A stretch of 23,805 nt of DNA. Origin: a virus. Its lineage: Duplodnaviria > Heunggongvirae > Uroviricota > Caudoviricetes. The stretch lies in IMG/VR virus record IMGVR_UViG_2619619130_000001; one strand, given 5' to 3'. The notes beneath the pieces were generated by a model. The model was not told the origin of the DNA and did no database searches. It saw only the letters and a program-made list of their open reading frames with translations. Below are positions 1-23,805 of this stretch, one piece after another (position 1 is the first letter of the stretch; each line of letters starts with the position of its first letter). The position numbers and the translations under genes were made by a program.

Positions 1-49
1 CCGGAGCGGGACTTGAACCCGCACAGCGCGAACGCCGAGGGATTTTAAA
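1..49 (-). other. att core: 3' segment of a tRNA-Leu(UAA)-like gene (anticodon loop to acceptor stem, truncated by window edge); partial copy, not an intact tRNA
   Basis: Reverse complement of 1-49 reads TTTAAAATCCC / long variable arm / GCGGG-TTCAAGT-CCCGC T-arm / acceptor 3' strand, as I recall for enterobacterial tRNA-Leu(UAA). The sequence at 50+ does not continue into a D-arm/5' half. A tyrosine integrase gene lies immediately adjacent. Confidence 0.6.
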
Positions 50-3133: not shown

Positions 3134-3484
3134 ATGAAAAAAAACACTAATATTCCATACTCCAAATTTCGTAATGGCGTAGAACGCCACGCTAACCGTT
3201 TCGCTATCAGTACATCACGTAGCAACACTCGCTACAGCCTGAGCGAAACACACGCTACACCTGATGGCCATCCCGTAAAACAAATTGGTGAACACACCTG
3301 GCTGATTGAGAAAGCTGGAATCGTGGTTCACAGATGCCAACGCAACCCATTTACCGGAAACCGCATTTTTGCTCTGAGCAACGGCGACAATCAGTTTGGA
3401 CAGGATTTCACGTTGTACGAAGCTCTGCGCACGGTTGATCGTCTGCTGCGTGGACAGAATTTCATTAAACAGGCTGATTTATAA
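3134..3484 (+). CDS. Hypothetical early protein
   Basis: 116-aa ORF in the early operon, tightly packed. Confidence 0.5.
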   Translation: MKKNTNIPYSKFRNGVERHANRFAISTSRSNTRYSLSETHATPDGHPVKQIGEHTWLIEKAGIVVHRCQRNPFTGNRIFALSNGDNQFGQDFTLYEALRTVDRLLRGQNFIKQADL

Positions 3485-8046: not shown

Positions 8047-8080
8047 AACCGATTAATTAATCAACATAAGGAAAAGCGAC

Positions 8081-9040
8081 ATGAAAATTTGTATCGACGA
8101 CGGCTCCACCAATATCAAGCTGGCATGGACTGAGAACGGCGAACGCCGCAACGCTATCAGCCCGAACAGCTTCAAGTCGGAATGGTCTGCGCCGTTCGGT
8201 GGCACGCAGCCCGCGAACTACATGCTTGATGGCGTGCGCTATGGTTTTGATCCGGTCAGCGATCGCTTTGTCCAGACGACCGACACGCAATACCAGTACA
8301 GCGATGTGAATGTCATTGCCATTCATCACGCGCTGGTCAAATCAGGCATCACACCACAGGAGGTGGATGTGGTTGTCACCCTGCCACTGAGCGAGTATTT
8401 CGACACAAACGCACAGCCGGACATGGCCAACATCAACCGCAAAAAAGCGAACGTTATGCGCCCGGTGGAGTACCAGAACGGCAAAGCATTCACTATCCGT
8501 AACGTACGGGTTATGCCTGAATCTATTCCGGCTGGCTTTAAAGCACTGGCTGACATGAGTCCGTTTGAATCCCTGCTGATTGTGGATTTAGGCGGAACCA
8601 CGCTGGATGTAGCAAAGGTTCAGGGACAACTGGCAGGTATCAGCCAGGTGTTTTGCGATCCACACGTAGGCGTTTCCCTGATGGCCGATGCAGTACTGTC
8701 GGTGATGGCCACTAACGGTATGCGTACCAGTCACCACATCGCCAATACCATTATCGAACATCGCCATGATGAAGCCTGGCTGCGCCAGCACATCCATAAT
8801 GACGCGCATTACGCCAGCCTGATGGCGGTTATTCGTGAAAAGGAAGAAACACTGAAACAACGCGTGATCCGCGCGCTGGCGGGTTTTTCGGGTTACGGGC
8901 GGGTGATGGTTGTCGGTGGCGGGGCGGAGATTGTGGCACCCGCTATCCGCGAAGCCTGCGGAGTTAATGCGACTTTCATCGCGGACGGGGGGCCACAGTT
9001 TGCTCTGGTTAATGGGCTGTACGCAATGGACAAGGAGTAA
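8081..9040 (+). CDS. parM: ParM/StbA-family actin-like segregation ATPase
   Basis: 319 aa; N-terminal CIDDGSTNIKLAW, SDVNVIAIHHAL, VMPESIPAG, LIVDLGGTTLDV and VMVVGGGAE motifs align along the length with plasmid R1 ParM as I remember it. Confidence 0.85.
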   Translation: MKICIDDGSTNIKLAWTENGERRNAISPNSFKSEWSAPFGGTQPANYMLDGVRYGFDPVSDRFVQTTDTQYQYSDVNVIAIHHALVKSGITPQEVDVVVTLPLSEYFDTNAQPDMANINRKKANVMRPVEYQNGKAFTIRNVRVMPESIPAGFKALADMSPFESLLIVDLGGTTLDVAKVQGQLAGISQVFCDPHVGVSLMADAVLSVMATNGMRTSHHIANTIIEHRHDEAWLRQHIHNDAHYASLMAVIREKEETLKQRVIRALAGFSGYGRVMVVGGGAEIVAPAIREACGVNATFIADGGPQFALVNGLYAMDKE

Positions 9041-9044
9041 ACCA

Positions 9045-9356
9045 ATGACGACTCCAACCAGACGGATAAGTTTCTATCTGAAGCCCGCCGCCGTCAAGAA
9101 CGAAGGAGAAGCATGCGCCTGGCTGGACAGCCTTACACCAGAAGCCCGCAAAAGCGGCCAACGCGTGGCTTTTCTGGCCGGGCTGGCACTTCTGAAAATG
9201 AATCCGGCAGAGGCTTACCGACTAGCTGCATGGGCTGATGATGAAGCGTTATCAGTGACACAAACCAGGACAGAACGCCCCGCATCACAGCCAGTATCAA
9301 CCGCACAGATAACCAGTCAGATGGCCGGAAATATCCGGGCGTTATTTCCTGAATAA
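9045..9356 (+). CDS. parR: ParR/StbB-like centromere-binding adaptor
   Basis: 104 aa from ATG 9045 (RBS AAGGAG); RRISFYLKP, WLDSLTPEARKSGQRVAFLAGLAL and C-terminal RALFPE resemble R1 ParR; directly follows parM. Confidence 0.72.
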   Translation: MTTPTRRISFYLKPAAVKNEGEACAWLDSLTPEARKSGQRVAFLAGLALLKMNPAEAYRLAAWADDEALSVTQTRTERPASQPVSTAQITSQMAGNIRALFPE

Positions 9357-20743: not shown

Positions 20744-21640
20744 ATGCCTGCTGTTGACCTTTCCCAGTTACCGGAACCCGCCATCATCGCGGAGCCTGAT
20801 TTTGAGGCAATTCTGGCTGACACAAAGGCCATGATGATTGCGTCCTATCCTGCCGAACAGCGTGAAGCCGTCTCCGCCGCGCTGGAGCTGGAATCGGAAC
20901 CCCTGAACGTTATCGCTCAAACCATGTCTTTTCGTGAAATGCTGTTACGCCAGCGGGTCAATGAGGGTGCACGCGCCTGCATGCTAAGCCACAGCGCCGG
21001 GACAGACCTGGACAACCTCGCGGGCAATATGAACACAAAGCGCCTGGTTATCACTCCGGCAACGGATACCACCGACGCAGTGATGGAAAGTGACACCTCG
21101 CTGAGACTACGGGCGCAACGGGCATATGACGGTCTGAGTGTTGCTGGCCCGTCAGGTGCATACGAGTATTTTGCACGCAGCGCCAGCGGTCTGGTACGCG
21201 ATGCGCGGGCCATCAGCCCGTCTCCGGCCAACGTGACGGTTTCCATCCTGTCCACTGAGGGCGACGGCACAGCAACGGAGGTGTTGCTTAATACCGTTCG
21301 CGCCGTTCTGAATGCAGAGGATACCCGCCCGGTGGCCGACCGCCTGACCGTACAGAGTGCCAGAATCGTGACATGGCGGCTGAATGCAAAACTGTACTTT
21401 TACCCCGGCCCGGAATCCGAACCTATTCTGGCCGCGGCGGAATCGTCGTTCAGGAAGTGGCTGTCTGAGCAGGGGCTTATCGGTCAGGACGTGGCGTTGT
21501 CAGCCATTGCTGCCGCATTGCATGTGCACGGTGTGCAACGCGTGGAGATAATCGAACCCACACAAAATATGGCCATCAGCGACATACAGGCGGCGCGCTG
21601 TGAGTCATTCACCATCAGCGAAGGTGGGCGTAATGAGTAA
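20744..21640 (+). CDS. J: Baseplate protein J
   Basis: 298 aa; LESEPL, RQRVNE, GLSVAG, VSILS, RPVADRVTVQSA, LHVHGVQRVE motifs match remembered P2 J. Confidence 0.9.
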   Translation: MPAVDLSQLPEPAIIAEPDFEAILADTKAMMIASYPAEQREAVSAALELESEPLNVIAQTMSFREMLLRQRVNEGARACMLSHSAGTDLDNLAGNMNTKRLVITPATDTTDAVMESDTSLRLRAQRAYDGLSVAGPSGAYEYFARSASGLVRDARAISPSPANVTVSILSTEGDGTATEVLLNTVRAVLNAEDTRPVADRLTVQSARIVTWRLNAKLYFYPGPESEPILAAAESSFRKWLSEQGLIGQDVALSAIAAALHVHGVQRVEIIEPTQNMAISDIQAARCESFTISEGGRNE

Positions 21641-22163
21641 TTCACTGTTACCGCCATCAGCCAGCAATTTCATGCGTTGTGCCGAAGCTGTCGGAACGCG
21701 CATTACAGACATTCCGGTAGACCTCAACACGCTGTGGTCGCCGGACACCTGCCCGGTGCATCTGCTGCCTTATCTCGCCTGGGCATTTTCCGTTGACCGC
21801 TGGGATCGCAACTGGCAGGAAGAGACAAAGCGACAGGTGATTCGTGATGCATGGCTGATACACCGACACAAAGGGACCATCAGCGCACTGCGCCGGGCCA
21901 TTGAGCCGCTGGGATACCTCATTCGTGTGTCTGAGTGGTGGGAGTTCGGCGGAGAACCGGGAACATTTACCGTTGAAGTCGGCACGCTGGACAGTGGCGT
22001 GACGGAGGAAATGTATCTGGAAATGGAGCGGTTGATTGCTGATGCCCGCCCGGTCAGCCGCCACATGACAGGGCTGAATATCATTCAGGAGATCCCGGGG
22101 GATATTTTCGCGGCGGCAGCAACTTACGACGGTGAAGTCATTACCATTTATCCGGACGATTAA
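21633..22163 (+). CDS. I: Baseplate protein I
   Basis: 176 aa from ATG 21633 (overlaps J stop); [22 protein letters not shown] and EMERLIADA match P2 I. Confidence 0.9.
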
Positions 22164-22165
22164 GC

Positions 22166-23805
22166 ATGAGTACCACAACACGAAAATTTAAAACCATTAT
22201 CACTGATACTGGTGCCAAAAAATTAGCTCAGGCAGCCGCGCCAGATGGTAATCCTGTCCGCCTGACTCACATGGCCGTGGGCGACGGTGGCGGCACGTTG
22301 CCCACACCAGACAGTAAGCAGACCCGTCTGGTGCATGAGGTGTGGCGACATACTGTTAATCGCGTCATCCTGGACGCAACACATCAGAACCGCATTATTG
22401 CGGAGCTGGTTATTCCTCCTGAAACGGGCGGATTCTGGATCCGGGAAATTGGTGTATTTGATGAGCACGGCGATTTAATCGCGGTGGGCAATACTGCCGA
22501 AAGTTACAAACCAACCGTTGCCGAGGGGTCCGGACGTGCACAAACATTTCGCACCATTCTGACCGTATCCAGCACTGCCACCGTGGCGCTTACCGTGGAT
22601 AACACCATGGTGATGGCCACAGTGGATTACGTGAATGACAAACTGAAAGAACATGAACAGTCACGACGTCACCCGGACGCCTCGCTGACCGCAAAAGGCT
22701 TTGTTCAACTCAGTAGCGCCACTAACAGCACGTCTGAAGCACTGGCCGCAACGCCGAAAGCGGTCAAGACAGCCTATGACCTTGCTAACGGGAAATATAC
22801 CGCTCAGGACGCCACGACGGCACGAAAAGGAATAGTCCAACTCAGTAGCGCCACTAACAGCACGTCTGAAGCACTGGCCGCAACGCCGAAAGCGGTCAAG
22901 ACAGCCTATGACCTTGCTAACGGGAAATATACCGCTCAGGACGCCACGACGGCACGAAAAGGAATAGTCCAACTCAGTAGCGCCACTAACAGCACGTCTG
23001 AAGCACTGGCCGCAACGCCGAAAGCGGTCAAGACAGCCTATGACCTTGCTAACGGGAAATATACCGCTCAGGACGCCACGACGGCACGAAAAGGAATAGT
23101 CCAACTCAGTAGCGCCACTAACAGCACGTCTGAAGCACTGGCCGCAACGCCGAAAGCGGTCAAGACAGCCTATGACCTTGCTAACGGGAAATATACCGCA
23201 CAGGACGCCACGACGGCACGAAAAGGAATAGTCCAGCTCAGTAGCGTCACTAACAGTGATTCTGAAACGCTTGCCGCGACTCCGAAAGCGGTGAAAGCCG
23301 CTAATGACAATGCAAACGGGCGTGTGCCCTCTGGACGTAAGGTTAATGGCAAATCACTAGCCAATGATGTCAATGTTACATCGCAGGATATTTTTAACGA
23401 CCAGAGTATTGAGATTGGTGCAAATCAGAATCTGGATAATTACAAAACACCGGGGCTGTACCATCAGCCATTGAATGCCAATACAAGCGCAGCGCTGAAA
23501 TACCCGGAGAATTTTGCGGGTACACTGGTTGTGCTTAAAAATGCCGGGATAACACAGATTTACTATGTGTATGACACATCCAGAAGCTATACCCGCAGCC
23601 AGTACTCAACGGGTGACTGGACACCATGGACGCCACAAGATTCATTTCCGGTAGGTGCGGCGATACCGTGGCCTTCTGATTCAGTGCCTACAGGCTATAC
23701 CGTTATGCAGGGGCAGACTTTTGATAAAACAGTCTACCCCCTGCTTGCAGTCGCTTATCCGTCTGGTGTGATCCCTGATATGCGTGGCTGGACGATTAAG
23801 GGCAA
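22166..23805 (+). CDS. H: Tail fibre protein (P2 gpH family), 3'-truncated by window edge
   Basis: N-terminus [21 protein letters not shown]...MAVGDGGG...[17 protein letters not shown] matches P2 H; open reading frame continues to the last base of the window. Confidence 0.85.
22690..23290 (+). repeat. 132-bp (44-aa) in-frame tandem repeat within H: four near-identical units plus a diverged fifth
   Basis: Anchor CAGTAGCGCC recurs at 22711, 22843, 22975 and 23107 (period 132), with a diverged CAGTAGCGTC at 23239; encodes [44 protein letters not shown]. Confidence 0.9.

Follow-up and report, generated by a model that had tools for sequence, protein, structure and literature searches.

We propose, with a probability of about 0.7, that the tail-fibre gene at the end of the window – the 23,805-nucleotide stretch of DNA analysed here, shown as one strand – carries a real, in-frame array of PF03406 modules, that these modules belong to the proximal shaft of the fibre of a P88-like prophage, and that the array has gained units very recently by slippage or unequal recombination. 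The earlier note had taken the near-identity of the units as a sign of recent expansion or of an assembly artefact, and the first of these views is supported by a series of alleles on the same flanks and by comparison with the prophage of the closed Escherichia coli H3 genome.

Tandem Repeats Finder reported one array at positions 22706-23292 (period 132, 4.4 copies, 97% matches, 0 indels, score 1090). The units, each of 132 nt or 44 codons, lie head-to-tail and in frame with the fibre ORF. Because the period of 132 is a multiple of three and there are no indels, the array is an in-frame coding tandem repeat. Its units are as follows.

22706..22837, + strand: repeat unit 1 (DNA allele 'a'), identical to units 2 and 3 (132/132)
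22838..22969, + strand: repeat unit 2 (allele 'a'), identical to units 1 and 3 (132/132)
22970..23101, + strand: repeat unit 3 (allele 'a'), identical to units 1 and 2 (132/132)
23102..23233, + strand: repeat unit 4 (allele 'b'), 131/132 against 'a'
23234..23299, + strand: terminal diverged unit 'c', 76/132 against unit 'a', homologous over the first ~66 nt only

Base-by-base comparison identified a sole change in unit 4: the T at 23200 is replaced by A, converting GCT to GCA, a synonymous change that leaves alanine in place. Three perfect copies of 132 nt cannot have originated by chance. The protein encoded by the fifth unit keeps 22 amino acids of the module and then departs from the repeat. 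These comparisons bear out the earlier description of four near-identical 44-amino-acid units followed by a diverged fifth, which is, however, a description at the DNA level. In the Pfam register (DA..KG.VQLSS...ANGKY) the protein contains five complete modules, spanning amino acids 173 to ~392. PF03406 (Phage_fiber_2) matches over five stretches with 329.1 bits and E=1.4e-100 against a gathering cut-off of 22 bits; the best stretch, amino acids 173-213, covers profile positions 1-41 of 42. A 147-amino-acid ORF on the - strand (22661-23104) was rejected as a by-product of the repeat; it is itself periodic, has no other support and is not a gene.

The array lies within a tail-fibre gene that the window contains in part. 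The gene, its domains and its upstream neighbours are the following.

20744..21640, + strand: baseplate J, an ORF with a Baseplate_J Pfam match, in agreement with the annotation of relatives
ending at 22163, + strand: tail protein I, the ORF directly upstream of the fibre, with a Tail_P2_I Pfam match, again in agreement with relatives
22166..23805, + strand: 5' part of the tail-fibre gene, starting with ATG at 22166; 1640 nt and 546 codons are visible before the contig end cuts it
22181..22624, + strand: N-terminal baseplate-attachment domain of the P2 gpH type (PF12571, Phage_tail_fib; amino acids 6-153, E=4.2e-54, 183 bits, cut-off 23)
23654..23797, + strand: collar domain (PF07484; amino acids 497-544, 35.4 bits, cut-off 24), the start of a distal tip like that of T4 gp37

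The partial protein is KDY27931.1, encoded on contig JNQX01000031.1 of E. coli 2-427-07_S3_C1. A 3901-bp contig from a sibling assembly (JNQY01000043.1, hereafter L007) is 100% identical over window positions 21197-23805 and completes the gene, which in full is 2091 nt long and encodes 696 amino acids (WP_032198610.1, hereafter P0112); the Pfam result for PF03406 is unchanged in the completed protein. Amino acids 491-546 align with the T4 gp37 tip (PDB 2xgf, E=6e-23), and the completed protein has His-rich HxH needle motifs and a C-terminus that reads ...NIAFNYIVRLA. Gene order follows the J-I-H order of P2, and relatives have a tail-fibre assembly gene downstream of the fibre.

With its PF12571 N-terminus and its position after J and I, the fibre shares the proximal features of the P2 gpH type. 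Homology to P2 gpH does not extend to the distal half, where PF07484 and a T4 gp37-like tip were found instead of PF21446. DNA similarity of the fibre to P2-group phages is confined to query positions ~229-1141, part of the 5' half, and window positions 1-23032 are 97.5% identical to Escherichia phage 520873 (Xuanwuvirus, P88-like). The gene is not P2 H; it encodes a mosaic fibre, part of a P88-like prophage (Xuanwuvirus, Peduoviridae), in which a P2-type N-terminus is joined to a T4 gp37-like tip.

The prophage is integrated at tRNA-Leu, next to yecA. Window positions 1-49 duplicate the 3' part of tRNA-Leu and represent the attL of the prophage. The same stretch, 61 nt long, bounds both prophage ends in closed E. 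coli H3 (3168-3228 and 40304-40364 of its locus, L015), between yecA and a tRNA-Leu/Cys/Gly cluster. Elsewhere in the prophage, at window positions ~8070-9340, correspondence with Escherichia phage 520873 (offset 884) places a plasmid-type parM and partition genes, which are unusual for P2 and annotated in P88-like phages.

We also looked for programmed switching of the fibre, by inversion as in Mu G or P1 C or by a diversity-generating retroelement, and found only a trivial 20-nt palindrome in 22100-23805. The genes that neighbour the fibre, in the complete H3 prophage as in other relatives, include neither an invertase nor a reverse transcriptase.

Comparison with known systems clarifies which parts of the fibre are shared. 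The earlier note correctly stated that P2 gpH (NP_046775.1) has two copies of the module – we found two motifs and two PF03406 stretches – and, like the window fibre, P2 gpH has PF12571 followed by PF03406 repeats of nearly the same sequence and is encoded in the order J-I-H. The two proteins differ in repeat number (two in P2 gpH, five in the window fibre) and in their distal parts: P2 gpH has a Gp34_trimer-type region (PF21446) and its own tip, unrelated to the collar and T4 gp37-like tip of the window fibre. The phages differ as well, the window prophage being P88-like (Xuanwuvirus) and P2 a Peduovirus. Phage Mu gpS has one PF03406 copy (QLTSATDSPSETLAATAKAVK; PDB sequences 5yvq, 8ju3 and 9ki1) and differs in copy number and in the surrounding domains, and the middle of the fibre was left unmodelled in the Mu virion (PMC11915804). 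The likeness to T4 gp37 (2xgf) is confined to the collar and His-rich needle, and the matched part has no PF03406 array.

Length variation by whole repeat units has been described in the collagen-like fibres of EHEC prophages, in which PF03406 ('Pf2') lies between collagen stretches; that study remarked in 2012 that 'little is known' about Pf2 (PMC3368898). A more distant parallel is provided by the BACON repeats of crAss-like phage tails, which arise by tandem duplication of whole domains and are described in the abstract of that study as hot spots of evolution (PMC6949934); their domain family and phages are unrelated to those of the window. A search for literature on copy-number variation of the PF03406 repeat in P2-like fibres found nothing directly relevant. 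E. coli K-12 StfR, considered as a comparator with many PF03406 repeats, was dropped when a Pfam scan found no PF03406 in it.

The most informative comparison is with E. coli H3. The exact window allele is absent from all 5426 complete E. coli genomes, and the best match among them is H3, with two units fewer. The H3 prophage (closed, NZ_CP010167.1) occupies the same insertion site as the window prophage. Upstream of the array the two differ by 7 mismatches in 22,705 nt; downstream they differ at 0 of 572 nt, and over the next 1,292 nt H3 differs from the sibling contig at 0 positions. The H3 fibre (WP_053890545.1) nonetheless has two full units and 608 amino acids, whereas the window allele has four and 696; unit 'b' is the last full unit in both. 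Because the flanks are near-identical and H3 has two fewer units, unit number evidently changes while the rest of the prophage barely changes. The array is thus an in-frame variable-number tandem repeat whose copy number differs between near-identical alleles and, because 132 is a multiple of three, whole modules are gained or lost with the frame kept. We found nothing directly relevant in the literature on the sequencing method behind the H3 record.

The wider comparison with related prophages that the earlier note had called for revealed that copy number varies, from two to four full units plus the terminal one. Representative arrays are given below, with the terminal unit after the semicolon.

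Window: a a a b; c
E. coli H3 (closed): d b; c
P0001: b e b; c
31B19CPO012 (closed): a f g; c
P0113: a h i g; c
P0114 (L010): j g k g; c, with a two-unit (264-nt) duplication
P0116: l m m m; c, on a short-read metagenome contig
Strain 67-1 (closed): n o p q; r, with diverged units

Single-base differences separate units a, b, d, e and h. In a second comparison, two closed genomes differ by one unit, with u3 u4 followed by c in E110019 and u0 u3 u4 followed by c in F8704-2. Whatever the copy number, unit 'c' is identical in H3, P0001, 31B19CPO012, P0113, P0114, P0116, E110019 and F8704-2. Fibre alleles of 608, 652 and 696 amino acids were observed, and two unit sequence types (…STSEAL…KT… and …SDSETL…KA…) are shuffled among them. 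Across nine closed-genome alleles, neighbouring units differ from each other by 2-30 nt, never 0.

By record span, and with both tip types pooled, the 60 best closed E. coli matches comprise 4 genomes with 2+1 units, 41 with 3+1 and 15 with 4+1. Among the 120 top protein homologues, 106 have four motifs and nine have five; the remaining five have three exact motif matches, and four of these five have an 88-amino-acid gap that holds a variant motif. Four motifs are the commonest state, and five modules, present in at least 15 closed genomes, are not unusual. P2 H, against which the earlier note had judged the array to be expanded, was therefore the wrong comparator for a P88-like mosaic fibre, a group in which four motifs are commonest. 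When one 44-amino-acid module was compared with 1.84 billion representative proteins, 2349 clusters matched; among the matches listed, single proteins have 2-17 PF03406-module stretches, and in close relatives 11-12 near-identical modules form a two-unit super-repeat. Proteins with other N-termini (P0121-P0124) have 6-12 modules, organised as a ~100-amino-acid two-module super-repeat in near-identical copies.

Two side observations concern the same family of fibres. A second, small in-frame repeat polymorphism occurs beyond the window in the His-rich needle, where P0002 (643 amino acids) lacks one 9-amino-acid unit (HTHTVGIGA) that is present in P0001 (652 amino acids) and P0112. In closed E. 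coli F8704-2 (L016 601-2559) the fibre is annotated as two pseudogene pieces around the repeat, one without the C-terminus and one without the N-terminus, which a frameshift close to the array, or an error of sequencing there, may explain.

The alternative that survives best, though we consider it unlikely, is that the copy number arose as an artefact of assembly: the assembler would have passed through the repeat loop a wrong number of times, and the true units would be fewer (two, as in H3, or three) or more. Small differences between units may also have been smoothed in the process. The source genome was sequenced on a HiSeq 2000 with 100-bp reads and assembled with MaSuRCA 2.3.2 (Richter et al. 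2018, PMC6222053). A distance of 495 nt separates the nearest copy-distinguishing positions, 22705 and 23200; no 100-nt read can bridge it, which leaves mate-pair or insert-size information as the sole basis for the count of 'a' units.

Several observations are consistent with such an error. Both contig ends lie inside repeated sequence, as is typical of short-read assembly; identical neighbouring units occur in 0 of the 9 sampled closed-genome alleles, and l m m m, the one further allele in which three units are identical, also comes from short reads; and in H3, whose closed prophage is near-identical, there are just two full units. Against it, the read sets of colonies C1 and C3 from one stool sample gave the same array with contig breaks at different places, though this sibling – clonal, from the same stool sample and processed by the same pipeline – is the sole other assembly found with the exact array. 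Four full units plus a terminal one are certainly present in closed genomes of this fibre family, and 696-amino-acid alleles with distinguishable units occur in other drafts (P0113, P0114 and P0115). Short-read assemblers, moreover, collapse tandem repeats more often than they expand them, which counts against an artefact. The earlier note had set expansion and artefact side by side; on balance the evidence favours expansion, with the 100-bp reads leaving the artefact some weight.

The contig end itself (23780-23805) encodes the conserved fibre motif ...DMRGWTIKG, and P0120, a partial protein of an unrelated strain, also stops at residue 546. Within a single E. coli genome the fibre query matches at a median of 2 sites, with a maximum of 17. 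The contig break is probably due to sequence that is common to several prophage fibres in one genome.

A far less probable explanation is that an old 4+1 array was homogenised by gene conversion (concerted evolution) and that the two-unit allele of H3 is a recent deletion; arrays of 4+1 diverged units from closed genomes, strain 67-1 (n o p q; r) among them, indicate that the five-module state can be old, and the shuffling of two unit types between alleles shows that units are exchanged, but gene conversion must wipe all differences over three whole units, while the nearest alleles form a stepwise series of two, three and four 'a/b/d/e' units on identical flanks. Mechanistically, gene conversion also differs little from unequal exchange and leaves the same present structure, and two alleles cannot separate it from duplication.

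We therefore return to recent unit gain as the preferred reading. An ancestor resembling the two-unit H3 allele would have gained units, giving three identical units and one with a single SNP. The likely cause is slippage during replication, or unequal recombination of one unit with the next, and the fibre would become longer or shorter with both of its ends unchanged. We infer both the mechanism and the direction, the two alleles being compatible with gain here and with loss in H3.

The modules would form the proximal shaft of a trimeric fibre, between the baseplate-binding N-terminus and the T4 gp37-like receptor-binding tip. In P2, the gpH repeats were modelled as two discrete 'repeat domains' in the proximal part of a 54-nm trimeric fibre, and this fibre, when retracted, docks onto particular layers of the sheath (bioRxiv 10.64898/2026.09.14.750843). 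We found no solved structure of the module; the PDB sequences that bear the motif are Mu gpS chains only, with one copy each. An AlphaFold2 monomer of the 696-amino-acid protein, with 20 close homologues as alignment, reached a mean pLDDT of 35.8, and none of its residues exceeded 70. A strand-strand-helix pattern recurs from unit to unit in this model but is untrustworthy; the fibre is a trimer, for which a monomer model is ill suited.

On the assumption that length is proportional to residue number as in P2 (54 nm for 669 amino acids), each 44-amino-acid module would add ~3-4 nm and the four-unit allele would be ~7 nm longer than the H3 allele. Because the distal tip is identical in the two- and four-unit alleles, receptor specificity should not change. 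The earlier suggestion that copy number would alter fibre shaft length and possibly host range finds no support here as regards host range; any such effect would need to act through reach or docking geometry. We are strongly doubtful of a bolder version of this idea, namely that the PF03406 array tunes fibre length in frame and at high frequency, and so serves as a contingency locus that governs the reach of the fibre and not its receptor specificity. Were it true, slippage in the lysogen or during replication would yield two, three, four or more modules on an unchanged tip, and selection would pick the length that suits O-antigen or capsule thickness or the sheath-docking register.

We also observed cargo genes near the fibre in this lineage. 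A 300-amino-acid macro-domain protein (PF01661, amino acids 44-169) is encoded between the fibre and fibre-assembly genes (L007 3057-3901; L002 4324-5226; L008 4956-5858). The start of its gene overlaps the fibre stop codon, and relatives with the other tip type (strain 67-1) lack the gene; a macro domain in a fibre operon was unexpected. In H3, a 190-amino-acid gene annotated as a serine acetyltransferase follows right after the fibre assembly gene (L015 28701-29273, - strand), with hexapeptide-repeat matches below the Pfam cut-off. This putative acetyltransferase could act in lysogenic conversion by modifying a surface sugar, and it and the macro-domain protein may be a candidate modify/unmodify pair. 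Outside the window, the complete H3 prophage has a TIR-domain gene beside a SIR2-family gene near ogr (L015 36378-38293, - strand), a pair that resembles a Thoeris-type anti-phage system in the usual cargo position of P2-like phages.

Several elements of this account are already known: PF03406 is a curated Pfam family, the protein is public and named as a tail-fibre repeat protein, and variable module number is common. For arrays of this kind, copy numbers from short reads are unsafe at face value, and strain differences in the fibre gene may be technical. The natural series of two-, three- and four-module fibres, with the same N-terminus and tip and a handful of bases apart, provides material for relating fibre length to adsorption and host range – a question that is also relevant to engineered P2- and pyocin-type fibres.
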